Below are positions 91 to 41,915 of a stretch of 41,915 nt of DNA, piece by piece (positions within the stretch are counted from its first letter, which is position 1; each line of letters begins with the position of its first letter). The DNA comes from a virus. The stretch is taken from UHGV virus genome UHGV-0393368. One strand, written 5' to 3'. Both the position numbers and the translations under genes were made by a program. The notes below the pieces were generated by a model. It was not told where the DNA came from. It searched no databases and saw only the letters and a list, made by a program, of their open reading frames with translations.

Positions 91-345
91 TTATTTTATT
101 TTCCGGCATTCAAGCACATCTCCCTTCTCAAAAACGTAATGACATCCAGGTATTGTAATCGTCCTTGGGCATTCATCCGTATAATCAATCAGTCCCTTAT
201 CTCTCATGTCACGTAAATATCCCCATATGGTAGAACTAGATGTATATCCAACTCCATCCCCAATCTCCCTGGTAGTAGGAGGATAGTTATGGATCACCAT
301 GTAGGACTTAATATAGTCAAGTATACGCCTATGTGCTTCCTTCAT
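91..345 (-). CDS. LexA-like winged-helix DNA-binding protein. It has the LexA N-terminal domain only, with no S24 peptidase domain.
   Basis: The 84 aa protein has a TTREIGDGVGYTSSSTIWGYLRDMRDKGLI motif typical of the LexA_DNA_bind domain. It is too short to carry the Ala-Gly/Ser-Lys autocleavage domain. Confidence 0.6.
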   Translation of the reverse strand: MKEAHRRILDYIKSYMVIHNYPPTTREIGDGVGYTSSSTIWGYLRDMRDKGLIDYTDECPRTITIPGCHYVFEKGDVLECRKIK

Positions 346-1476: not shown

Positions 1477-1482
1477 ATAATC

Positions 1483-1566
1483 CCTCCTTTCGGGCCGGGT
1501 AAAGGAGGTTTGATAGGTCCCGGCCCAGGGTCAGAAAGTATATCATGACATATCAGCATTCTGACC
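1483..1566 (-). promoter_or_regulatory. Tandem stem-loops in the 5' leader of gene 1093..1476, with an anti-SD element.
   Basis: Stems GGGCCGGG/CCCGGCCC (1492-1499/1519-1526) and GGTCAGAA/TTCTGACC (1529-1536/1559-1566). The loop of the first stem contains CCTCCTTT on the mRNA, which is exactly complementary to the downstream SD AAAGGAGG. Confidence 0.35.
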
Positions 1567-1622
1567 AGTACTCATTTCCGTTGTATGTATCATCCCACAA
1601 GGGGGAATAGATACCAAAAATG

Positions 1623-2069
1623 TCAGTTTAAATGAACTACTTCTGCCTTTTTCACAGGCTGGCTACAATATTCCACCGTTACATTCCGCTGATATGAAAA
1701 CACACTGCCACAGCAAGGACACTCACACTCGTCTTCATCATCGTCAGCTTCCCAACTGTCACCATTTTCATATCCACAATATGGACAAGTAATCTGTCCT
1801 GTGTAATCTTTATCTTCTGGCTCCTCGCCATCAATAAAAACTTTCTGCAACTTTAATTTCTTAACATATGCCGTATGATACCTCCCCCCTTTTCCGGCTA
1901 GGGAGGTGACGCCATATGCAGTGTTGTCTATGATTAGCGTGTCCCCAATGTTGATTTCCTTGTCGGTCTCTATAATGGGCTTTATCCCATTATCTTCAGG
2001 AGTAAGTCCGTTCATGCTGAAATCCCACGAACGCTTACTACCCAAATCTGCATAATCAAATATTTTCAT
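1623..2069 (-). CDS. Hypothetical protein with a C-terminal zinc ribbon.
   Basis: 148 aa with CPYCG...CECPCCG cysteine pairs near the C-terminus. It sits in the early operon. Confidence 0.45.
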   Translation of the reverse strand: MKIFDYADLGSKRSWDFSMNGLTPEDNGIKPIIETDKEINIGDTLIIDNTAYGVTSLAGKGGRYHTAYVKKLKLQKVFIDGEEPEDKDYTGQITCPYCGYENGDSWEADDDEDECECPCCGSVFSYQRNVTVEYCSQPVKKAEVVHLN

Positions 2070-2100
2070 CTTCCACCTCTGTTAAATCTTAATTTTGCTT

Positions 2101-3237
2101 TCAAGGCATCATCTCCAGGAAACCCTTTATGGTCATCTGGCCACCGTTCTTCGCCTCTGCCTGTTTCATCTTCTTAAAATCGTTATATCTCTGTCTGTAC
2201 CTATAGCTGTCACCAAATATATTCCATGCAGCCTTAACAACATTCGGTTCGTATGCTCTTATCTTTTCCAAATCCGCTACCGCTTTAGAGGAAATACTAC
2301 ACCCACAACATCCTGTACGTGTCAACCCATACACCTCGTAAGCGTCCGAATATCTTATCTCATACCGCTCTTTATACCATGCCTTATCTGCGTCCGACAC
2401 ATAATACAATGGCTTTAATCGGAACTGTCCGCTGCTCGTTTCTGAAAAACACATCGTTCCATTTGCATCTTCAGATTTTGGCACGGAGCGCATGCCTCCC
2501 TCGTCCCGGCGTTCTCCTGTAATAACCATTTCATATCCCGCTTGTACCTTATGGGCTATCTGTTTCTTGCAGTAGTCACAGCATTTTGCGCTGATTTTAA
2601 AATCGCACGGATTTTCTTTCATAAACTCGTATAGGTATTTCGATGAATCAATCACTAACTGTATATTTGGCCTTGGTTCCCCATCTCGGTTACAACAACA
2701 CAGAAAATTGATTCCCTGTTCTGATTTCGGATACCGCTCTCGCAATTCCTCTCTCTTTGCCATTTTATTCTCCGCATTGTCATATTCTTCCCTGATAGAA
2801 AGTGGAAGCTCTTTCTTCTGCACCGTTTCCATTGCGCTTGATACAATTTTTGAAATGAATGGGATACCATATTCCCTCGTAGACTGTACAATGTTTTTCT
2901 TAGGTCTGTACTCCGTTATCTCAACACCATATTTATTTTTAACATCTATTACATGGTCTTTTGTCGCCTTCATTTCAAGCCCAGTATTGAAAAAACAGTA
3001 TTTCACCTCAGGTAGGCCGAACAACGTTCTTGTCCGTTCTATCAAATCGAGCATAATATCACTGTCACTTCCACCGGAATACGAACATATTGCATTTGGA
3101 TGCTCTTTTAATCTCCTTGCAATAATCGACTGTATTGCCTGAAATTTACTCGGCGCATCAAAATCAGCGTACGCCGGGCGTTCAGTGTATACTCTTGAAT
3201 AATATACTTCCTTACTATTTTTATTTGTCTGTCTCAT
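2101..3237 (-). CDS. PAPS reductase family PP-loop ATP pyrophosphatase-like protein, large phage type with several Cys clusters.
   Basis: 378 aa. It carries a canonical SGGSDS PP-loop (CSYSGGSDSDIMLDLIE) and multiple Cys clusters (CCCNRDGEP, KCCDYCKK, GCCGCS). Confidence 0.7.
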   Translation of the reverse strand: MRQTNKNSKEVYYSRVYTERPAYADFDAPSKFQAIQSIIARRLKEHPNAICSYSGGSDSDIMLDLIERTRTLFGLPEVKYCFFNTGLEMKATKDHVIDVKNKYGVEITEYRPKKNIVQSTREYGIPFISKIVSSAMETVQKKELPLSIREEYDNAENKMAKREELRERYPKSEQGINFLCCCNRDGEPRPNIQLVIDSSKYLYEFMKENPCDFKISAKCCDYCKKQIAHKVQAGYEMVITGERRDEGGMRSVPKSEDANGTMCFSETSSGQFRLKPLYYVSDADKAWYKERYEIRYSDAYEVYGLTRTGCCGCSISSKAVADLEKIRAYEPNVVKAAWNIFGDSYRYRQRYNDFKKMKQAEAKNGGQMTIKGFLEMMP

Positions 3238-7044: not shown

Positions 7045-7791
7045 TTACTTTTCCCTCCTTAAAAACTTGTTAATAAAATACTGCTGACCTTTTCCAGTAA
7101 CTTTGGTAGTCTTGTTTATTCTTACGGAGCCATCAGGATTATTCACTGTACTTTCCTTCACCTCAAACAATCCAGCCTCCATACTGCGTTGTGTTGGCAT
7201 ATTCCATTCCGAACCATTCCGTTTAATGAGATAGCCATTATCCCTCAACCAAGAAAATAGTCTTTTCTGTCCGATGTCCACGCCGTTTTGTTTAATCAGC
7301 TTTGCCAAGTCACCAATAAGAATTGATGTATGACTAGTTGCCACAGCATCAGCGAATATTTCTTTCGGTTTCATACGCTGAACGTCCTCCAGGAGTACAG
7401 TGTTTTGTGACTTTAGTTTGTCAATGGTCTTTCCTGCCATTTTTAACGCCCTTGCCATGACCTGCTCCGGTGTGTTCCATGCTTTCTCTAAGTCAAGGAA
7501 ATACTGACGGTACTGCCTGCCTTTTTCGGAACGTTGTATCATGCAAATCTGTTTTGCCATGTCTACGCTAATCTGATAGTCAACTATCTCCCTTTTAACC
7601 TCTCTACTTCCCTCAATTTGAACCCGCTCATTTTTGAGCATGTTGAAATCTTTACCGATTTCAAATCCATATTCTGCCATTCTAGGAAACCAATCCTTAA
7701 AAGCTGTCTTGATTTCCAGTCCCTCATGCAATTCCCTTGCCGATACTGTTGGCTGTTCAGCATCGTAATTGATTTTTATAATTTCTTCCAT
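7045..7791 (-). CDS. ant: Phage antirepressor, AntA/AntB N-terminal domain plus KilA-C C-terminal domain.
   Basis: SARELHEGLEIKTAFKDWFPRMAEYGFEIGKDF matches the AntA domain. The C-terminal half is KilAC-like. An AGGAGA SD is present. Confidence 0.7.
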   Translation of the reverse strand: MEEIIKINYDAEQPTVSARELHEGLEIKTAFKDWFPRMAEYGFEIGKDFNMLKNERVQIEGSREVKREIVDYQISVDMAKQICMIQRSEKGRQYRQYFLDLEKAWNTPEQVMARALKMAGKTIDKLKSQNTVLLEDVQRMKPKEIFADAVATSHTSILIGDLAKLIKQNGVDIGQKRLFSWLRDNGYLIKRNGSEWNMPTQRSMEAGLFEVKESTVNNPDGSVRINKTTKVTGKGQQYFINKFLRREK

Positions 7792-7804
7792 TAAATCTCC
7801 TAAT

Positions 7805-7987
7805 CTAAGAAATAAGCTTGTCCACTTTAACTTTTAAAACATCCGCGACCGCTTTGAGGCTTTTTACAGTTGGGCTTGAATCATTCCATTTGCTAATAGC
7901 TCCATTTTTTAATCCTGCTTCGATTTCAATAGACCTAACGCTCAAACCTCTTTCTTCGCATATTTCTTTAATTTTGTCATAAATCAA
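7805..7987 (-). CDS. Cro-like XRE-family HTH regulator with a TTG start.
   Basis: About 60 aa HTH: LSVRSIEIEAGLKNGAISKWN. It is divergent from the CI-like gene. A GGGGGTGA SD precedes the TTG. Confidence 0.6.
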   Translation of the reverse strand: MIYDKIKEICEERGLSVRSIEIEAGLKNGAISKWNDSSPTVKSLKAVADVLKVKVDKLIS

Positions 7988-8206
7988 TTTATCACCCCCT
8001 CTCATTTTAGAAAATATTCAGCAAAACCCTTGACAAAACTTAGAAAGTATTCTAATATAAAGTTACCACACAATTTATTAGAAAAATATCTGTACCCATT
8101 AAGTTTTACCGAAAGTTTTCTGTGTTCATACCTCTATTATACAGAATTCTTTCTAATTGTCAAGCCTTTTTTACAGAAATTTTTCTGTAGGTTAGAAAGG
8201 AGTTAT
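7988..8206. promoter_or_regulatory. Lysis-lysogeny switch region with divergent promoters and operator-like inverted repeats.
   Basis: A plus-strand sigma70-like promoter TTGACA (8030-8035), 17-nt spacer, TAATAT (8053-8058) sits upstream of the CI-like gene. Operator-like palindromes are TTAGAAAGTATTCTAA (overlapping the -10) and TACAGAAA-TT-TTTCTGTA (8172-8189), with related TTAGAAA and TTTCTAA half-sites. Confidence 0.5.
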
Positions 8207-8629
8207 ATGACCGTATATGAGCGGATTGAAAGCTTAAGGAAATCCACTGGGCTTTCGCAAGGAAAATTAGAAAAAGAGCTTGGTTTTTCTAATGGTTCTG
8301 TATCAAAATGGAAAACCAGCACTCCCACACCGGAGCGATTACAGAAACTCGCTGATTTCTTTGGTGTAACTGTTGATTACTTAATGAATGGGAAGGAGGA
8401 AACCCCAGAAGAAAAGAAGCCCACTCTTTCTAATAACGAAGAGCTTAATGTAATTAATGATGTTGACGAAATTATGAAGCGCATAAGGAACAACGAGACG
8501 GTTGTCCTAAGATTTAACGGCGAGGATTACTCGGGGGATGAGGATGAGGATAAATTATTAAGAGACTCACTGTTATCACTTTGTAGGGCAGCTAAGATTA
8601 AGAAAAAGCAGGAAGGCTTTGGAGAGTAG
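8207..8629 (+). CDS. CI-like XRE-family repressor, HTH plus a C-terminal acidic region, of the ImmR type.
   Basis: GAAAGGAG SD then ATG at 8207. The N-terminal HTH reads LRKSTGLSQGKLEKELGFSNGSVSKWKTS. The ORF-track start at 8030 is a TTG read through the promoter. Confidence 0.7.
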   Translation: MTVYERIESLRKSTGLSQGKLEKELGFSNGSVSKWKTSTPTPERLQKLADFFGVTVDYLMNGKEETPEEKKPTLSNNEELNVINDVDEIMKRIRNNETVVLRFNGEDYSGDEDEDKLLRDSLLSLCRAAKIKKKQEGFGE

Positions 8630-10485: not shown

Positions 10486-10651
10486 GTAAAAACCGGCCCC
10501 TGCGCCAACAGGAACCGGCCTACATACCCGAAGATATGCACTATAATTCGCACCTATATTGTACCATCTTCGGGGCGGCTTTGCAAGATATTTGCGGAGC
10601 TGTATTTTTTATACCTATTTTTAGGAAAATCAATTGAAGGAGGAAAGAGAA

Positions 10652-11722
10652 GTGACTACAAAAGCCCCGAAAAAGAAAAAAGGAGAACTACCATCCAAAA
10701 ATATCCGTGTACAATTATATTTATACACGGATGAAAAAGGTAAACGGCATTACAAAAGCTTTGTTGCCCCATCACGCAAAATCGCACAAGAAATGGCTGC
10801 CAGATGGAAATTAGATATGAAGGATAAGCCCATAGAGAAATACAATGAACCGGAAGAGGACGAAGAAGATATTACAGTCAATGATGCTATTGAACGCTAT
10901 TTAAGCGCCAAGAGCGGTGTTTTAAGCCCTTCTACGCTTAGAGGGTACACTGGTCTGCAAAGACAGTATTTCGGCGGCGCATTTGGCCAAAAAAAGCTTT
11001 CAGAACTGACAAGTCCATCTGTGCAAATATGGGTAAGTAATTTAGCTGCAAAAAAACTATCTCCAAAGACGGTAAGAAATGCCTATGGTCTGTTATCTCC
11101 AACACTGGAAATGTTTGCACCCGAATTAACTTTAAACGTTAAACTGCCTCAAAAAAAACGTCCTAACTTATATTGCCCCAATGACAATGATATTAAAAAG
11201 TTGCTGGATGCTATTAAAGGCACTGATTTGGAGATAGCTGTATTATTGGCTGCGTTTGGTCCACTTAGGAGAGGGGAGATAAGCGCTCTAACTGATAAGG
11301 ACGTGGATGGAAAAATTATCCATGTAAGAGATAATATGGTCAAGGGGCCAGACAATCAATGGTATATCAAACAGCCAAAGACAGATGACAGTACAAGGGA
11401 TGTAGAAATGCCCGCATTTGTAATTGACCGGATATCTAAAAGAAAAGGAAAGCTGGTTGACATGAACCCGGATTACATCACACACCGATTCGGGCGAGTA
11501 CTCAAAAAAATTGATATACCACACTTCAGATTCCATGACCTACGGCATTATGCTGCATCCATTATGCACGCTATAGGGATACCGGACCAATATATTTTGC
11601 AGCGGGGAGGATGGGCCAGCGACAATATTATGAAAACCGTATACAGAAATGCGATTGACTCTGAAACCGTCCGGCAAAATAAAAAAATTAATAAGCACTT
11701 TGAAAAGTTGAACAGCATGTAA
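10652..11722 (+). CDS. int: Tyrosine site-specific integrase.
   Basis: AAGGAGGA SD then GTG. The C-terminal catalytic region has HDLRH and the Tyr motif (...RGGWASDNIMKTVYRNA). It is the last gene before the att-like region. Confidence 0.85.
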   Translation: MTTKAPKKKKGELPSKNIRVQLYLYTDEKGKRHYKSFVAPSRKIAQEMAARWKLDMKDKPIEKYNEPEEDEEDITVNDAIERYLSAKSGVLSPSTLRGYTGLQRQYFGGAFGQKKLSELTSPSVQIWVSNLAAKKLSPKTVRNAYGLLSPTLEMFAPELTLNVKLPQKKRPNLYCPNDNDIKKLLDAIKGTDLEIAVLLAAFGPLRRGEISALTDKDVDGKIIHVRDNMVKGPDNQWYIKQPKTDDSTRDVEMPAFVIDRISKRKGKLVDMNPDYITHRFGRVLKKIDIPHFRFHDLRHYAASIMHAIGIPDQYILQRGGWASDNIMKTVYRNAIDSETVRQNKKINKHFEKLNSM

Positions 11723-35850: not shown

Positions 35851-36153
35851 TCATCCTTTCCACCTACCAAACAGTGTCATTAACCGCCTATATTCATCCA
35901 ACGTTTTTCTTTGATACCCGTAAAAATCATCCCGCTTAATTGGTATATTCTTTCTCTTGCTCAACTTGTCATATCCGATATTACTTACAAGGCTTTCGTA
36001 TATCTCCACCTCCAGTCCAGGAGCCGAGGATATAGCACACTGGAACAATGTAAGCTTATCTTCTACGCTGGCGGTCTGGCAGTATTCTTTTATGCGTTTG
36101 GCTTCATCATCGGTAATGCCATAATCACTATAGTTCTTGTCCCTGGTCCTCAT
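35851..36153 (-). CDS. Hypothetical protein. It occupies the position where late-gene activators usually sit, upstream of terS.
   Basis: 100 aa. There is no recognisable domain. Confidence 0.3.
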   Translation of the reverse strand: MRTRDKNYSDYGITDDEAKRIKEYCQTASVEDKLTLFQCAISSAPGLEVEIYESLVSNIGYDKLSKRKNIPIKRDDFYGYQRKTLDEYRRLMTLFGRWKG

Positions 36154-36164
36154 AGCCCTCCTTC

Positions 36165-37211
36165 CTACACATTAACTCTTTCTCTTACTGAACGAAGAGT
36201 GCGCGGGTTAGACTGTGCATAATAACGTGCCGTAACTCCTGGGTCTGCATGGCCCATAATTTCCTGTATGGTCCCAATATCAACTCCTCTGTTTTTCAGA
36301 TTCATTCCCAGCGTCTTGCGTGACTTATGCGGATATACCCGACATGTTAGACCGGCTCTTTTCCTTATGGTTTTCAATATCGCCCGAAATCCACAAGTAG
36401 TCATCTTTCCATACGGTTTTCTGGAGCGTGGGAACATATATGGACAATCATCTTTCCTGCTGTCAAAATACAGGCCGTAGTAATGACGCGCATCATCATC
36501 CAGATAGATAGTCCGATATCTTCCGCCTTTCTCTCCCTGTATCCAAATATCGCCGGTTCTCATGTCTATCTGGTCCAGAGTTATTTCTGCAATCTCCCCT
36601 ATCCTGGCTCCAGTACTTCGAAGTACCTCCAGCAAGGCCCTCTCGCGGATATTTTTGCACGCATCCCTTAATCTTGCAGATTCTTCCGGGCTGTAATAAT
36701 CAATTGGTTTAATTGGTACTTTCTTGGCAGGTATTGGTTCCACCGGATTATCTGTAATAAGCTTTTCAAGGCGCATCCATGTAAAGAATGCTGATAGAAA
36801 ACGGCGTTCATTGTTGTAGGTACTGGGCTGATTTTTCTTTCCTCCGCTGGACACATTCCTAATTTCGTATCGGGATAAATACCAATCAATATCTGTGGTA
36901 TCCATCTGGTCCAATGATTTTGTGTTTATTTCTGTCAACAATCTTCGTATGGCATTCAGATAGTTTTGTTTGGTTCCTCTTGCTAAATCGCGTTTTTTAA
37001 TCAGGAATAATTGTATTATGTACTGATTCCGCTGGCTTATATCATCCTTTCTTTCTGCCGGAAGAGTAGTTATTTCCTCCATATTTACCCTTACCAATTC
37101 CTGCTGCATTACATTTTGCAGAATGTTAAGAGTCTGCTGCTCCACAATATATAAGGACATGGCTACCAGTACATTGTTAATTATTTCAGCTTTAATTGTC
37201 TGTGTACTCAT
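36165..37211 (-). CDS. Second tyrosine recombinase (XerD/Rci/Cre-like phage integrase family), separate from the canonical integrase.
   Basis: Catalytic residues lie in RSTGARIGE (Arg), YPHKSRKTLGMNL (His-x-x-Arg) and IMGHADPGVTARYYA (His ... Tyr). The start was set at the internal ATG (MSTQTIKAE...) that has a GAGGAGGA SD. The ORF-track start at 37313 lacks an SD. Confidence 0.8.
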   Translation of the reverse strand: MSTQTIKAEIINNVLVAMSLYIVEQQTLNILQNVMQQELVRVNMEEITTLPAERKDDISQRNQYIIQLFLIKKRDLARGTKQNYLNAIRRLLTEINTKSLDQMDTTDIDWYLSRYEIRNVSSGGKKNQPSTYNNERRFLSAFFTWMRLEKLITDNPVEPIPAKKVPIKPIDYYSPEESARLRDACKNIRERALLEVLRSTGARIGEIAEITLDQIDMRTGDIWIQGEKGGRYRTIYLDDDARHYYGLYFDSRKDDCPYMFPRSRKPYGKMTTCGFRAILKTIRKRAGLTCRVYPHKSRKTLGMNLKNRGVDIGTIQEIMGHADPGVTARYYAQSNPRTLRSVRERVNV

Positions 37212-37242
37212 AATTATATCCTCCTCATTCGTATTGATTTTC

Positions 37243-37274
37243 ACGTCTGAGTGAGATATAATATACTCAGACGT
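37243..37274. promoter_or_regulatory. Perfect 10-bp inverted repeat ACGTCTGAGT..ACTCAGACGT flanking a 12-nt spacer that contains TATAAT, 32-64 nt upstream of the recombinase start.
   Basis: ACGTCTGAGT-gagatataatat-ACTCAGACGT. It could be an operator over a -10 element or a recombinase binding site. Confidence 0.35.
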
Positions 37275-37369
37275 ATTTACGAGAGCGGTGGAATCATCTT
37301 GGCGGGTGACCATCGCTCAGTTTTCATTCTGTGCATATATGTGTTCCTTTATCTATTTTTCTTTAATCT

Positions 37370-37407
37370 GAAACTGCTAATACTACTGATATCAGTTTAG
37401 CAGTTTC
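37370..37407. repeat. 38-bp nested palindrome, the founding copy of a motif family repeated four times (also at about 38134-38154, 38444-38471 and 39507-39535).
   Basis: GAAACTGCTAA-TACT-ACTGATATCAGT-TTAGCAGTTTC has 11-bp outer arms and a 12-bp perfect inner palindrome. The copies at 38444 and 39507 share TAATACTGCTGATTATCA(T/G)TTTAA. All copies overlap the stop of one small gene and lie 20-60 nt upstream of the next start. Confidence 0.5.
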
Positions 37408-37628
37408 TCTATGATAAATTTCGGTACATAAACCACTCCATTTTCTTCGTTGTCTCTTAAGTAGTGTTTTAAATCTGCTTCCATAATAATCCACTTTTTC
37501 AGCGCTTTAATACCCATCTCGCAGGCCTCAAGCCCTTCCAATGTTTGATGTGCACCATCAGATTTAGCTACTACCTGTCTATCAAATACCGCTAATATAT
37601 TCATAGCCTCTGTTTTTGTCATGATCAT
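37392..37628 (-). CDS. Hypothetical small protein.
   Basis: 78 aa. Confidence 0.35.
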   Translation of the reverse strand: MIMTKTEAMNILAVFDRQVVAKSDGAHQTLEGLEACEMGIKALKKWIIMEADLKHYLRDNEENGVVYVPKFIIEKLLN

Positions 37629-37655
37629 TCCCTTTCTGGATTATAATTTAAAATC

Positions 37656-37946
37656 TTAATTCTCCAACTCCTCAGCCCAGGCAGTATGGTTGTATGTATA
37701 AACTACATTACCCGTAACAATGGCCTCAAGCCCCTCCCATTCTTCTACATTTTCAAGAGACAGTTCTTCGCTATTCAATGCACAAGCGATAGCTTCTTTC
37801 TCGTTTTCCGCCTCGACTTCCACATAACATGCTGCAACTATCGGTACCATAACTCGATATTTTTTCATCTTTATTCCTTCCTTCGTTACTCCCGGAAATA
37901 TCAGTTTTGTTGTGTAACGATACACATTGTTACGCAACGTTATCAT
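37656..37946 (-). CDS. Hypothetical small protein, probably starting at the internal MKKYRV.
   Basis: 96 aa ORF. Confidence 0.3.
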   Translation of the reverse strand: MITLRNNVYRYTTKLIFPGVTKEGIKMKKYRVMVPIVAACYVEVEAENEKEAIACALNSEELSLENVEEWEGLEAIVTGNVVYTYNHTAWAEELEN

Positions 37947-38097
37947 TAAGATACCTGTCCAGGGCCTGCCGGATCACCCAACTTATAGCCCTGTCCTCTT
38001 TCTGGCAGTAGGCGGTTACCCGTTTTAGTTGTTCCGGGTCCATGCTTATGTTCTGCCGGATATACTTCTTATTGGTCTCTTTCTTTGGTCTTGCCAT
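37930..38097 (-). CDS. Ribbon-helix-helix (CopG/Arc-like) DNA-binding protein.
   Basis: MARPKKETNKKYIRQNISMDPEQLKRVTAYCQKEDRAISWVIRQALDRYL matches the RHH pattern. The start is at the internal ATG. Confidence 0.55.
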   Translation of the reverse strand: MARPKKETNKKYIRQNISMDPEQLKRVTAYCQKEDRAISWVIRQALDRYLNDNVA

Positions 38098-38147
38098 ACC
38101 TCTGCCCCTTTCTGTGTATGTATACACAATTTTTGATCAATATCAGT

Positions 38148-38420
38148 TTAGCGACCTAACTCGTCAGCATAAATAAGCCCAGAACAACCAAACTTATTAC
38201 CATACCAATAACAATATTTTCCGCTTAAAATCGGATAATCCTCACATTTTAATTCATACGGTGCTATTACTTGCGCCTTATAAACTCCATCTGATATTGC
38301 TCCGTACTTTTTCCTTTGTGACTCTTTTTCCAAACTGTTATGCCTGACTTTTATAATGGCGCTGTCTCCGACTTCCAATCTCCTTAAAGGACGCTGCCAG
38401 TCATACTCAAATTCTTTCAA
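38148..38420 (-). CDS. Hypothetical protein with a TTG start after a GGAGG SD.
   Basis: About 90 aa. It is Cys- and aromatic-rich. Confidence 0.35.
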   Translation of the reverse strand: MKEFEYDWQRPLRRLEVGDSAIIKVRHNSLEKESQRKKYGAISDGVYKAQVIAPYELKCEDYPILSGKYCYWYGNKFGCSGLIYADELGR

Positions 38421-38444
38421 ATTTTCCTCCTTCTCAATCAAATG

Positions 38445-38660
38445 CTAATACTGCTGATTATCATTTAACGGACAAATTCCAATTACAGAACAAGATATAC
38501 TGTCACACCATATCGGACATTTTTGGCAATAAGTTCCGTTAAAATCCTTAGGCACAACAACCGATATTGTCATTATCTTTTCATCTTCTGTGATTTTTGA
38601 AATTTTACATTCATTACTTTTATCTGTTTCATACAAACCACCATTTTTTATAAATTTCAT
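38445..38660 (-). CDS. Small Cys-rich protein.
   Basis: 71 aa: C..C.IWCDSISCSVIGICP. Confidence 0.35.
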   Translation of the reverse strand: MKFIKNGGLYETDKSNECKISKITEDEKIMTISVVVPKDFNGTYCQKCPIWCDSISCSVIGICPLNDNQQY

Positions 38661-38869
38661 ATTTTCTACCTCTGGAAAACTTAATATCTCTTAAAAGTAT
38701 CATCATAATCAAAGCAGTAGCAACTTGGGTGATTAACATCCACCTGTTCTCTTATATCAACATTACAAATTACCATTCCTTCTGTTTCTTTCTCACATTC
38801 ACAATATATGCAATATTTACATATATATCTTTCTTCTGTCTTCTGGTATCATTCTTTATCCTCCAGATA

Positions 38870-39040
38870 CTAATCTTCAAAACATTTTTTTGTTTCCACT
38901 GGAACATCAAAAACACTTATCTTATTGCAATACCACTGCCCCCTATGGAATGCTTGTAGATTGCAGTGCCTACAATTTTCGCAGCTTTTTTCCCGTTTCT
39001 TTGTTTCAATAATCCCCAACAGCTCTTTGTTTTTAATCAT
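38870..39040 (-). CDS. Small Cys-rich protein of 56 aa, missing from the ORF track.
   Basis: GAGGT SD, 6 nt, ATG. MIKNKELLGIIETKKREKSCENCRHCNLQAFHRGQWYCNKISVFDVPVETKKCFED. Confidence 0.4.
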   Translation of the reverse strand: MIKNKELLGIIETKKREKSCENCRHCNLQAFHRGQWYCNKISVFDVPVETKKCFED

Positions 39041-39057
39041 ACCAATACCTCAAAATT

Positions 39058-39288
39058 TTAAATTAATGGGATATCTGCTTCTTCAATGGCTCGATTTAGA
39101 AGTGATCTATAATCACCCAAACAAGCCACAGTGTCAATCAACAACCCTGAAAATGATTTTACGCCTGAATAGCATTCAATGCTTTCCTCAATGCTATCGT
39201 CAATATCTCTTGATTTATCTACTTTTTCAAGATCAGACATTAGGCTCTCTATTCGTTTCACCATCTCACGCGTCTGTTTTACTTTCAT
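39058..39288 (-). CDS. Hypothetical small acidic protein.
   Basis: 76 aa. Confidence 0.35.
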   Translation of the reverse strand: MKVKQTREMVKRIESLMSDLEKVDKSRDIDDSIEESIECYSGVKSFSGLLIDTVACLGDYRSLLNRAIEEADIPLI

Positions 39289-39311
39289 GTTATTTACTCC
39301 TCTGTAAAATT

Positions 39312-39488
39312 TTAATCTTCCTGCTTTTTAGAATAATTTAAGCAGTATGTCAAATTGTCAAGCAATGCATTTTCTCCACATGGTATATCGTTTTCCGAAT
39401 GTGATGATATTAATACCACGGATAACTTACATCCCATTTTCTTATTATGATTTTCGCAATCATGATTCCCGCATCTTACATATGCCAC
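39312..39488 (-). CDS. Small Cys/His-rich protein with a GTG start.
   Basis: GGAGGAA SD then GTG. AYVRCGNHDCENHNKKMGCK. Confidence 0.35.
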   Translation of the reverse strand: MAYVRCGNHDCENHNKKMGCKLSVVLISSHSENDIPCGENALLDNLTYCLNYSKKQED

Positions 39489-39528
39489 AGCTGGTTCCTC
39501 CATAATGTTAATACTGCTGATTATCAGT

Positions 39529-39771
39529 TTAATGGATTATCGCCTGACCACATGTAGAGCAACGCCCTGTATTTACACAGTCTTCCGCAGTTGATTCACC
39601 ACAATTAGGGCAGAGATAAAATCCCCTATCATACGCACATCTCTTGTAAATATCCTTTCGCATAGATACTATAGCGATTTTATATGCCTCCTCGATATCA
39701 GAAAAACTTTCACCCTCATTAGGGATTGTTGTTTTTCTGCTAACAATTTCTATTGCCTTTTCAATTTCCAT
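39529..39771 (-). CDS. Zinc-ribbon protein.
   Basis: 80 aa. CPNCGESTAEDCVNTGRCSTCGQ. Confidence 0.45.
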   Translation of the reverse strand: MEIEKAIEIVSRKTTIPNEGESFSDIEEAYKIAIVSMRKDIYKRCAYDRGFYLCPNCGESTAEDCVNTGRCSTCGQAIIH

Positions 39772-39826
39772 TCGCTACAGTCCTTTCTCAAATCCTAATT
39801 TTCATCGTTTAATACAATATTTCCTT

Positions 39827-40552
39827 TCAGTCATTTATCCAGCCTATCCCCTGGCTAAGTAATTGGCAGGCTATCGTACAGTCTTCCATAACCTCCAGGT
39901 CCATCCTTCCACGGTTCGGGTCTAACTCGTCCAGATATACTCCCCCGATACAACTATGCCCTATCTCCCTCTCCTGCCTAGCCCGGCGTTCAAATACCTC
40001 CGGGAAATCAATCCGAATCTTATTCCAGTATCCCATGCCGCCTTTTACGCAACCAATGCAGTTGTTGTTTGGATACCCCATGTCATACATTACTGGGCGT
40101 TTCAGCCCCAGTTTATCGGCTATCCCGTGGCACTCTGCTTTTGTCAATCCATTCTCAATCAACGGGAACTCATGGTCGTAGTCAGAAAGCGCTTTAACAA
40201 CTGCGTCTGCTCTGTGCATCTCATTCACATCATAACCCCACACATATGTATGATGGTCTGGATTCGCTGCCTCCCAGTCTCTGCGTACCTGTTTTTTCAA
40301 CCATTTAGTGCAGGGTGCTCCAAAAGCTGTGTTTATGCATCTGGTATTTTCAATTACATCATCCACATCTTTGTATTTATCTGATTGTATAGGCTCAATC
40401 TTTCTTCCCAAAATCGCCTCGCAATCCTTCAAAAATCTCAGACTATCAGGATGTTGATTTTCGACATGAGTGTAAATAATTTTATCAATATCCTTAGCCA
40501 AGTAACACGCCACAAAAGACGATACTCCGGTGCTAAACCAACATACTTTCAT
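39827..40552 (-). CDS. PAPS reductase / PP-loop ATPase-like protein, second copy in the genome, with a degenerate P-loop.
   Basis: 241 aa. The N-terminal WFSTGVSSFVACYL sits in the position of the SGGxDS PP-loop. NNNCIGCVKGGMGYWNKIR is a CxxC motif. Confidence 0.5.
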   Translation of the reverse strand: MKVCWFSTGVSSFVACYLAKDIDKIIYTHVENQHPDSLRFLKDCEAILGRKIEPIQSDKYKDVDDVIENTRCINTAFGAPCTKWLKKQVRRDWEAANPDHHTYVWGYDVNEMHRADAVVKALSDYDHEFPLIENGLTKAECHGIADKLGLKRPVMYDMGYPNNNCIGCVKGGMGYWNKIRIDFPEVFERRARQEREIGHSCIGGVYLDELDPNRGRMDLEVMEDCTIACQLLSQGIGWIND

Positions 40553-40637
40553 AGGTACCTCCTAAAATGAATAATTACTATTATCGCTCACCAGCGCTAA
40601 TGTATTGACTGGTAAATCCTGTAATTTTACCATTCAG

Positions 40638-40651
40638 AAAGTGATCACTTT
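40638..40651. promoter_or_regulatory. Perfect 14-bp palindrome AAAGTGATCACTTT in the 155-nt intergenic region upstream of the PAPS-like operon.
   Basis: It is the only sizeable intergenic gap in this early cluster, and the palindrome is operator-like. Confidence 0.3.
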
Positions 40652-40708
40652 ACCCGGCCAGGACTGTTTTACTTTCTATTTCTTTAATTGCTTAAATAGC
40701 GATTTTGG

Positions 40709-40981
40709 TTAACAAATTGGCGACTGAAACGAGCATATTCCATCCAGATAACACCGGTTCGCAAACTCCTCTGCCTCCCCGCTCTCCAGTGCTTTGATTG
40801 CCATCTTATATGCCTGTATCTGCTTTTCTGCGTCTGCCCGGAATGCCAACTTGTCTTGTATCGTGTTTCTGGCAATTCCCATACGCACCATCTGTTCCCA
40901 TCCACCATCCGTAATTTGGTGGTGGTATGTATTAATGTGTTCCTGCAATATGCCTATGGCTTCTCTTTTGTCAATTGTCAT
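40709..40981 (-). CDS. Hypothetical protein.
   Basis: The start was set at MTIDKREAIG, which has a GGGAAGGAAAAG SD. Confidence 0.35.
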   Translation of the reverse strand: MTIDKREAIGILQEHINTYHHQITDGGWEQMVRMGIARNTIQDKLAFRADAEKQIQAYKMAIKALESGEAEEFANRCYLDGICSFQSPIC

Positions 40982-41333
40982 ACTTTTCCTTCCCTCGCTC
41001 CCCATAATCATGTTCTTTTTCCTCTTCCCAGATTACCTTAATAACCTCCACTTTATCGAGCGGAATGTAGAATGATCCTTGAGCCTCCCACTCTCCAGCC
41101 TTCCACTGCTGTTCAAACTCTTCCAAACTATCAGCCAGCAAAAATCCGGCTTCCTCTTCTGTCTGGTACATAGTTCGCATCATTGCATCGTCCGATTCAT
41201 CCGGCCAGCTGAACAGATGATACATCTCGTAGTTGTCATAATCCCATAACGTTAACGCTACTACATACCCATCTATCGGCCATCCAGTGCTGTTTACCCG
41301 TCCTTCAACGAGTTTTGGTCTATATCCCTTCAT
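40971..41333 (-). CDS. Hypothetical acidic protein.
   Basis: 120 aa. Confidence 0.35.
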   Translation of the reverse strand: MKGYRPKLVEGRVNSTGWPIDGYVVALTLWDYDNYEMYHLFSWPDESDDAMMRTMYQTEEEAGFLLADSLEEFEQQWKAGEWEAQGSFYIPLDKVEVIKVIWEEEKEHDYGERGKEKYDN

Positions 41334-41635
41334 CCCTCTGCCTCCTTATATGGATCCGGTGCTGGATGCCATGCAATCACATCAAGAAGTCCTTCATCAT
41401 CAACCTTCCACCATTCTTCTCTAACATCATCATAATATCCAACTTCAACATATCCACGTCTAACCGTAACGTGTACTATCTCTCCACACGGAGGAAGGTC
41501 CCTTTCAACCGGAACCCACTTATTCTCTGTTTTTGCGGTTGGAATTTTTCTTATATCCTCGATTATGTACTCTTCTCCCTCATATCTTGCAATAAGCAGT
41601 TTTTTTACATCATCCGAATCAATTAGTCTTCCCAT
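41330..41635 (-). CDS. DUF551-family phage protein.
   Basis: 101 aa ending ...VIAWHPAPDPYKE, which matches the DUF551 'W.P.P.P' terminal signature. A GAGGAGGAAG SD is present. Confidence 0.5.
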   Translation of the reverse strand: MGRLIDSDDVKKLLIARYEGEEYIIEDIRKIPTAKTENKWVPVERDLPPCGEIVHVTVRRGYVEVGYYDDVREEWWKVDDEGLLDVIAWHPAPDPYKEAEG

Positions 41636-41660
41636 TCTGCTTCCTCCTCTAAATCTGTGT

Positions 41661-41822
41661 TTATTCTTTTACCTCCCACCAAGAACAATCTAAATGACTA
41701 TTTTTCCAATCCTCATACGAATCTTCAACTTCTTCCTGCGATGCATCATCATCAAATTCAAATTCTTCTTCATGGGTTGCCCCGGCAAATCCTGTCCCCA
41801 TATAAAAGTGATATTTTTTCAT
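41661..41822 (-). CDS. Small acidic protein of 53 aa, missing from the ORF track.
   Basis: AAAGGAGAAG SD. MKKYHFYMGTGFAGATHEEEFEFDDDASQEEVEDSYEDWKNSHLDCSWWEVKE. Its stop lies just before the SD of the DUF551 gene. Confidence 0.35.
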   Translation of the reverse strand: MKKYHFYMGTGFAGATHEEEFEFDDDASQEEVEDSYEDWKNSHLDCSWWEVKE

Positions 41823-41915
41823 TCAGTTTCTTCTCCTTTCAGAAATGGGCATTTTGATTACTTGGACGCCTGGAATGATCCGGGCATATTTCCGTCCTAT
41901 CATAGGCTGGACGTA

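Follow-up and report, generated by a model that had tools for sequence, protein, structure and literature searches.

In the virus genome UHGV-0393368, a stretch of 41,915 nucleotides that is called the window below, a short sequence motif recurs at the junctions between small genes of the early operon. Comparisons with related phages show that this motif marks recombination joints, and that gene cassettes, each made up of a leader, a Shine-Dalgarno sequence (SD), an open reading frame (ORF) and a stop codon, are delimited by it. The motif exists as a long form (LF) of 28-29 nt, TAAACTGATAATCAGCAGTATTARCATTT, of which three copies are present in the window, and as a short form (SF) with a core of 12 nt, AAACTGA-N-ATTT. 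It is a family-wide junction element of temperate Lachnospiraceae siphophages, located at the 3' edge of small early genes; it is also found in Enterocloster citroniae DSM 19261, of which the contig NZ_JBEPLZ010000052 has the LF twice, and the hosts are Lachnospiraceae. I propose, with a probability of about one half, that the motif would serve as a linker for the shuffling of cassettes through short homology in the variable (hyperplastic) early region of small genes.

Two forms of the motif and their distribution

That a conserved element is present at early-gene junctions had been noticed in a first-pass annotation of the window, and the element is found again in related phages. These relatives were gathered with the Xer-like tyrosine recombinase as anchor, which is encoded at 36165-37313 on the minus strand, directly upstream of the terminase genes, and which the phage has in addition to the lysogeny integrase at 10634-11722. 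The recombinase is 90-97% identical in approximately 30 IMG/VR contigs and 57-62% identical in approximately 17 more. I fetched 51 related loci, and the 40 recombinase-anchored loci were used for the counts. Upstream of the recombinase, these 40 relatives provide 154 kb of sequence, in which the motif is observed 47 times on the sense strand and never on the antisense strand; it is absent from both strands of their 271 kb of recombinase, packaging and structural DNA. Within the window, the copies are confined to about 6 kb.

An exact 18-mer of the motif occurs in IMG/VR contigs, where its extended context is the same and the flanking genes are unrelated. Most relatives with a 95% identical recombinase are without the LF, and have AAAACTGA(C/T)ATTTTC at the same junction. 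The LF corresponds to the SF core with approximately 16 nt between its two blocks, AAACTGA-TAATCAGCAG-TATTARN-ATTT, and intermediate long forms exist as well (AAACTGACATATACACTATTAACATTT, ...CATAAGCAATATTAAC... and ...GAGATAGACACTATTAGG...); kept across the long forms are AAACTGA, 9-11 variable bases, TATTA, three variable bases and TTT. Approximately 34 distinct SF junction contexts and 22 distinct LF contexts could be discerned, and four metagenome contigs provided new motif flanks. A search for the LF in cultured-phage and plasmid collections gave no significant match, and scans of viral and genome collections with degenerate patterns returned mostly chance matches (in Bacteroidota and marine phages), which were filtered by context.

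The motif overlaps or abuts the stop codon of the upstream gene. At 21 of the 34 distinct SF junctions the stop codon is inside the motif, being either the TGA of AACTGA (14 junctions) or the TAA of TAAACTGA (7 junctions), and at 26 of the 34 it is located at most 10 nt from the motif; the remaining SF junctions mostly show a hairpin between stop and motif. As the stop codon is located inside or near the motif while the distance to the next SD varies between 0 and 49 nt, the motif is anchored to the upstream stop and not to the downstream start.

Exchange of neighbouring sequences at the motif

Eleven unrelated upstream modules are joined to one homologous recombinase leader, and the switch occurs exactly at AAACTGA; over the 59 nt preceding the motif at this junction, the median identity is 29%. 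The reverse arrangement is seen in the loci L005 and L013, in which one upstream gene end plus the LF is joined to three different downstream leaders. When the window is compared with L015, L016 and L026, blocks of 99-100% identity break off at three places, 38425-38440, 39056-39064 and 39790, and the motif or one of its relics (see below) is located at every one of them.

Single cassettes can be recognised directly in some pairs. L068 equals L066 plus a cassette of approximately 540 bp with one ORF, flanked by a 22-nt direct repeat, TTAGTCAGCAAAACTGA(C/A)ATTT, that contains the SF. This repeat string is coding in one copy and non-coding in the other, and its conservation is therefore at the level of the nucleic acid; for the same reason conserved protein C-termini (…KN*, …QN*) were rejected as the source of the motif. 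In L079, an ORF of 81 aa stands between two copies of AAACTGAAATTT. L015 (51-3186) contains a 640-bp tandem duplication of the block from the 56-aa to the 71-aa gene, split by a foreign insert of 1.1 kb, with LF copies at three junctions, namely at both ends of the insert and after the second duplicated block; this duplication looks like the product of an unequal exchange between two phages.

The forms of the motif also replace each other at one and the same junction. At the recombinase junction, the window has the LF and 19 of the 25 close relatives compared have the SF, while two loci have only an ATTTT remnant and three have no motif. The junction of the 148-aa gene has the SF in the window and the LF in L046, and the junction of the 56-aa gene has a relic in the window and an LF variant in L015. 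Because LF, SF, relic and absence of the motif interchange in this manner, the extra 16 nt of the LF, and at some junctions the whole motif, are not needed by the flanking genes. As junctions can dispense with the motif, a linker that is kept by repeated recombination and second-order selection is favoured over an essential cis-regulatory site, though the motif may still modulate its neighbours.

Copies in the window

In the first-pass annotation, four copies of 25-30 bp had been reported on the forward strand, at 37376-37403, 38134-38154, 38444-38471 and 39507-39535. The four repeat sequences are indeed present at these positions, and three of them are LF copies, whereas the one at 38134-38154 turned out to be a degenerate copy of the SF. 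As all genes from about 36.1 kb to the end of the window are on the minus strand, the sense reading of the motif is the reverse complement, TAAACTGAT(A)ATCAGCAGTATTARCATTT. The downstream genes had been listed correctly (a Cys-rich gene, a hypothetical gene, a ribbon-helix-helix (RHH) gene and the tyrosine recombinase), and the reported overlap with stop codons holds as well, with the stop placed at differing positions of the motif among the copies. If these copies are numbered c1-c4 from low to high coordinate, the stop is TGA in c1, TAG in c3 and TAA in c2 and c4. Two clear SF copies, at 37893-37909 and 1615-1631, had gone unnoticed.

With a 25-mer consensus and up to three mismatches, two copies are found versus 0.00 expected. 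A Hamming scan recovers the three LF copies, and shuffled sequences give 0 matches with up to 6 mismatches in 29 positions and 0.03 if 7 are allowed. Four exact matches to the 9-mer AAACTGATA are present in the window; they fall within 37390-39530, and the minus strand has all of them. Copies were further scored with a position-weight matrix (PWM), for which the threshold was taken from the maxima of shuffled sequences.

The LF copy c4 (39503..39531, minus strand; TAAACTGATAATCAGCAGTATTAACATTA) provides with its TAA the stop of an 80-aa gene (39529..39771), directly before ATGGAGGAACCAGCTGTG (SD GGAGG, likely a GTG start) of the Cys-rich gene of 63 aa; it is identical at 28 of 28 positions to copies in L005, L013 and L017, in which the flanks are unrelated. 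Through the LF copy c3 (38440..38467, minus strand; TAAA-TGATAATCAGCAGTATTAGCATTT), located upstream of the AGGAGG SD of a 97-aa gene, runs a 71-aa gene (38445..38660) that ends at the TAG of the motif. The LF copy c1 (37372..37399, minus strand; TAAACTGATA-TCAGTAGTATTAGCAGTT) has the stop TGA of a 78-aa gene (37392..37628), and it lies approximately 60 nt upstream of the gene of the Xer-like recombinase, within a hairpin at 37370-37407.

The best PWM match in the window, with 22.4 bits, is the SF copy at 37893..37909 (minus strand; CAAAACTGATATTTCCG), which is flanked by the RHH gene and its 3' palindrome on one side and by a 70-aa gene (start 37868) on the other. The other clear SF copy (1615..1631, minus strand; TTAAACTGACATTTTTG; 19.5 bits) has as its TGA the stop of the 148-aa gene (1623..2069). 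The copy c2 (38135..38151, minus strand; CTAAACTGATATTGATC) has only the left block TAAACTGATATT in common with the LF copies, and its 14.3 bits stay below the 95th percentile of the shuffled maxima (18.1 bits), so that it is not significant alone. It is a degenerate SF copy that was admitted by position and strand and not by score; its TAA is the stop of the 97-aa gene, and the RHH gene is downstream of it. A likeness of c2 to the phiX174/pC194 nick site (AACTTGATATTAATAAC) was judged to be due to chance, and no HUH Rep protein was found.

Four further sites on the minus strand seem to be remnants of the motif. A probable decayed relic at 2081..2097 (CAAAATTAAGATTTAAC, two transitions from CAAAACTGAGATTT; 6.7 bits) is located at the junction of a PAPS-reductase-like gene (2101..3237) and the 148-aa gene, and another at 41648..41664 (ATAAACACAGATTTAGAGG, to be compared with TAAACTGATATTTAGAGGAGG in L107; 4.9 bits) at the junction of a 53-aa and a 101-aa gene. 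A possible relic at 39048..39066 (TTAATTTAAAATTTTGAGG) is found upstream of the 56-aa gene, at the junction of which L015, with an identical gene, has the full LF variant AAAACTGATAATCATCAGTATTAGGATTTTGAGG. The last possible relic (39790..39814; TTAAACGATGAAAATTAGGATTT) is located at the junction of the second PAPS-reductase-like gene with the 80-aa gene. In addition, the block AAACTGA alone is observed at two sites on the minus strand: at 41823-41829 it follows the SD of the 53-aa gene and precedes its start codon (AGGAGAAGAAACTGAATG), and at 37317-37323 it is found just before the start of the recombinase (AAAACTGAGCGATGG). Both sites may match by chance or may be remnants of the motif as well.

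A proposed linker for cassette exchange

In the proposed mechanism, the shared 12-29 nt would act as a microhomology, and phage-driven recombination would cross over inside the motif, either in co-infected cells or on the encounter of a phage with a resident prophage. Whole leader-SD-ORF-stop cassettes could in this way be swapped, inserted, deleted or duplicated in register, with the reading frames and the operon left intact, and a crossover in the motif would keep both the upstream stop, for which TAA and TGA are offered in two frames, and the downstream SD, and would thus give viable recombinants. The direct orientation would be inherited, as inverted copies would flip segments of the operon and be lost. 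The motif would be one-stranded and regional, as cassettes would enter via directly repeated linkers only and only the hyperplastic region would be shuffled. I infer that the recombination is homologous rather than enzyme-targeted, and that the motif is kept conserved by its function as a linker rather than by a cis-regulatory role. The phage encodes an exonuclease and Gp157, and relaxed recombination of short homologies by phage recombinases has been documented (PMC3945230).

Several points weigh against a linker. The core of 12 nt is short for efficient homologous recombination, and a single-strand annealing protein (annealase) was not identified in the window. AAACTGA and ATTT are perfectly conserved in three diverged types of recombinase leader, which could equally be a result of purifying selection, and the 28/28 identity of LF copies in unrelated contexts fits a recent spread, yet also a strong selection on a protein or RNA site. 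Moreover, breakpoints would fall at any shared functional sequence, and therefore give no reason for the sharing. A bolder variant is an actively serviced cassette system, in which a dedicated enzyme (the Xer-like recombinase, a nuclease or another factor) would recognise AAACTGA...ATTT and move single-gene cassettes as circles. I regard this as quite improbable; if true, it would represent a phage counterpart of integrons, with a site of 12-29 nt unlike attC or dif.

Alternative explanations

The motif could instead act on the transcript, as an unstructured site after the stop codon for an RNA-binding protein or an endoribonuclease, which would cut the early mRNA or set the stability or translation of the cistrons. 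This is possible, though I consider it rather unlikely. The absolute strand bias (47:0) and the limitation to the early operon speak for such a signal, the anchoring to the stop at a variable distance from the SD suits a site of boundary cleavage, and the core is better conserved than the surrounding leader. This core has only one G, in surroundings rich in A/U, and its N is free where the cut would be made; in this it resembles the loose site preferences reported for RNase Y and RNase E. However, AAACUGA is more specific than generic RNases need, the window gave no candidate for a nuclease or an RNA-binding protein, and the same junction tolerates LF, SF, relic or no motif. Nor is there a conserved RNA fold: the LF copies fold with -2.7 to 0 kcal/mol, the junctions have no common structure, and a search of Rfam 15 gave no match at E<=1 for 36000-41915 and only a spurious lncRNA match for 1-2300. 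A conserved hairpin CTGA-N3-TCAG was considered and rejected, as it is lost in the intermediate long forms and absent from the SF. I know of no convincing complementarity of the motif to the 3' end of 16S rRNA or to boxA. The suggestion of the first-pass annotation that the motif is a phage-specific promoter fares less well still. A middle or delayed-early promoter, comparable to the MotA promoters of T4, would have AAACTGA as an activator box approximately 10 nt upstream of a -10-like TATTAA, and the spacing of 9-10 nt between these blocks in the LF, as well as the position of the motif upstream of many genes of one temporal class, agree with this; intergenic repeats carry promoters in other viruses, for instance in HF2 (PMC8707807). 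However, a sigma-70 scan of the coding strand is blank at every copy of the motif (region-wide, 20 sigma-70-like sites are found versus 18.1 expected), and the candidate -10 hexamers TATTAA and NATTTN come without a conserved -35. If these hexamers were used, the transcript would start inside or after the SD at junctions such as AAACTGACATTTGGAGG and TATTAATATTTAGGAG, in which ATTT abuts GGAGG, and the SD would be removed. Manual readings as -35/-10 or extended -10 elements (TGnNATTT, TATTAA, TAACAT) failed on spacing, on a non-conserved -7 or on removal of the SD, and by inspection a reading as an alternative sigma or ECF-type site (AAC...CGT) has no -10 partner. The SF has no -10 element at a fixed distance, the motif is placed relative to the upstream stop rather than the downstream start, and no gene for a sigma factor or RNA polymerase was found; the reported sigma-r4-like protein is the small subunit of the terminase, whose gene immediately precedes that of the large one. 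Such a promoter thus seems very improbable to me. An intrinsic terminator (a GC-rich hairpin followed by a U-tract) was not predicted on the minus strand between 36100 and 41915 either, and as neither promoters nor terminators are predicted here, the early operon is probably one polycistronic unit.

A DNA site for a phage regulator would be improbable as well, but its asymmetry, its single orientation with respect to transcription, the short intergenic gaps in which it occurs and its frequent overlap with stop codons are what one would expect of a stoperator-like element, which blocks the elongating RNA polymerase and silences or delays accessory genes; the palindrome CTGAT(A)ATCAG in the LF suits a dimeric binder. 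However, this palindrome is absent from the SF and from intermediate forms such as that first given above, and no PWM match is found in the cI/cro divergent control region (7790-8040), where the operator of a repressor must be. The motif is confined to about 6 kb and not distributed genome-wide, and no regulator was found to co-occur with it. The RHH protein, which had been put forward as a binder, has a better operator candidate of its own: its gene is bracketed by the palindrome TGTGTA-N4-TACACA at 37911-37926 and 38113-38128 (2 found, 0.08 expected), and homologues of the protein were detected in six loci only, versus dozens for the motif. A cI operator or stoperator was rejected for want of a copy in 7790-8040; CTGAATATTTTCTAAA, which is present there, resembles some SF leaders elsewhere but is without the AAA block and obtains no score. 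Little credence can be given to a recombination site of the adjacent Xer-like recombinase, in an array resembling those of integrons or pdif, with AAA(C)TGATAAT and ATTARCA(G)TTT as LF arms and a 7-bp spacer. Written as 11-7-10 arm-spacer-arm, the LF has the spacer CAGCAGT between arms that are complementary at 9 of 10 positions, the arms of c1 pair perfectly versus the upstream AAACTGCTAA, and a unidirectional array of stop-associated repeats, as for attC, ends at the gene of a tyrosine recombinase. However, the SF is without an inverted repeat and cannot be written in this way, conservation of the arm positions is missing, and the position that pairs with G7 (G7-C25) is C in no more than about half of the LF contexts. 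Across phages, motif and recombinase are also uncoupled, which speaks against such a site. In L021 and L122, which have the motif, no recombinase is encoded between the early genes and the small-terminase (terS) genes, the latter being unrelated, while in the cultured Clostridium phage phiCs5676-1 a 55% identical recombinase is found at the same position and the motif is absent. Compared with the integron integrase model TIGR02249, the recombinase scores 64.7 bits, against a cutoff of 265 bits.

Comparison with known junction repeats

In function, the motif comes closest to the PeSL (promoter-early stem-loop) of T4-type phages (PMC2839356, PMC4122927), a conserved repeat that separates small ORFan genes in hyperplastic early regions. 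In both cases the joints of indels and replacements between close relatives fall in the repeat, and both have been proposed as linkers for modular shuffling. A PeSL measures approximately 100 bp, in which a strong sigma-70 promoter is combined with a terminator stem-loop (PMC2839356, PMC4122927), whereas the present motif is 12-29 nt long, has no promoter, no terminator and, apart from c1, no stable stem-loop, separates genes within what is probably one polycistronic operon, and belongs to a temperate phage of a Gram-positive anaerobe. The SAS (start-associated sequences) and their extended form, the ESAS, which occur in Cluster K mycobacteriophages (PMC3203893), are likewise short, asymmetric, of a single orientation, found in the non-structural half of the genome next to diverse gene families, and extended in a subset. 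However, the SAS includes the SD core and is 3-7 bp away from the downstream start, while the motif described here is without an SD, anchored to the upstream stop and unrelated in sequence. In the ESAS, an inverted repeat of 17 bp is added on the upstream side; in the present motif, the extra bases are placed within the core. Also asymmetric (12-13 bp), oriented with transcription and located in short gaps, often overlapping stop codons, are the stoperators found in Cluster A mycobacteriophages (PMC6550527, PMC9283540), but they match the primary operator of the repressor and occur genome-wide, while this motif is absent from the cI/cro region and the late genes.

Integron attC sites and the Xer sites dif and pdif are, like the motif, directly repeated stop-proximal sites between unidirectional promoterless cassettes near a tyrosine recombinase. 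The LF resembles their arm-spacer-arm core site, but the SF does not share the inverted repeat, and the recombinase is both uncoupled and below the integron cutoff. The attC sites are imperfect palindromes of 57-141 nt, with R''/L''-L'/R' boxes, that fold as a single strand, whereas the arms of the LF are imperfect; dif and pdif sites have two inverted arms of 11 bp on either side of a spacer of 6-8 bp. For lambdoid phages, the modular theory (Susskind and Botstein 1978; Clark et al. 2001) has linker or 'boundary' sequences of its own, which are said to be short conserved sequences at gene boundaries at which mosaic joints cluster. These lambdoid linkers are few and weak, whereas here one defined motif is observed with an absolute strand bias in dozens of independent junction contexts.

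The motif thus belongs to the general kind of conserved junction repeats of phage accessory regions, and to no named family. It is not a new principle, but a clean case for linker-mediated modular exchange that is free of promoter and terminator function. The exchange of small accessory genes in temperate phages of gut Firmicutes is poorly understood, and for one widespread group of them the motif offers a searchable marker of cassette boundaries and recombination joints, with which inventories of cassettes could be made from metagenomes. It also makes the linker idea of modular phage evolution directly testable, and separates it from promoter and terminator function, which is a confounder in the T4 PeSL. 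Should the motif turn out to be a regulatory or enzyme-recognition site, it would be a new cis-element in an unstudied group of phages.

Neighbouring features of the window

Copy c1 is the only one with a stable structure, a hairpin of 38 nt with a perfect stem (37370-37407; -17.5 kcal/mol, z -5.35), in which the right arm of c1 is base-paired to the 3' end of the upstream gene; it is not seen at the junction in any relative, and as it is without a U-tract it is not a classical terminator. In the conserved leader of the recombinase (37314-37372), a strong SD precedes a short upstream ORF (ATGCACAGAATGAAAACTGAGCGATGG...), which overlaps with the recombinase start as annotated; that start itself has no SD. 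Of the two palindromes bracketing the RHH gene, the one at 38113-38128 is located just upstream of its SD and the one at 37911-37926 just after its stop, the latter within a hairpin with a 14-bp stem (37908-37939); the same pair is present in L015. The pair is likely to be the autoregulatory operator of the RHH protein, as predicted from its arrangement.

L023 is 100% identical across the junction of the end and the start of the window (41915 to 1), from which it follows that the window is a complete, circularly permuted genome and that the early operon spans the origin. The lysogeny module is on the plus strand and comprises a cI-like HTH gene (8030-8629), an ImmA-like peptidase and the integrase mentioned above. 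The operon on the minus strand starts at approximately 8040 with a Cro-like gene, followed by an antirepressor, Gp157, the exonuclease, an HNH-like gene, a PAPS-reductase-like gene and a DnaD-like replication initiator, and then wraps to 41915, where it continues with about 15 small genes, the RHH protein of 55 aa, the Xer-like recombinase and the small and large terminase. Just after the replication initiator, a protein of 82 aa (100-345, minus strand) matches the N-terminal DNA-binding domain of LexA only (TIGR00498, 48.7 bits, below the cutoff).

The SF copy at 1615-1631 is followed by an intergenic region that is unusually long, with 146 nt (1477-1622, minus strand), and that is predicted to form hairpins, three in number (-45 kcal/mol, z -2.2). 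The region is partly conserved in L043 and L084, has no match in Rfam and is located upstream of a gene pair that ends with the DnaD-like initiator; judging by this position and folding, it could be a replication-origin or leader element. Finally, two different PAPS-reductase-like genes (2101-3237 and 39827-40552, both on the minus strand) are present in this one phage of 42 kb. Homologues occur in L122 and in phiCs5676-1, where the gene adjoins a helicase and a ParB-like gene, and these genes may have a function in DNA modification or anti-defence.

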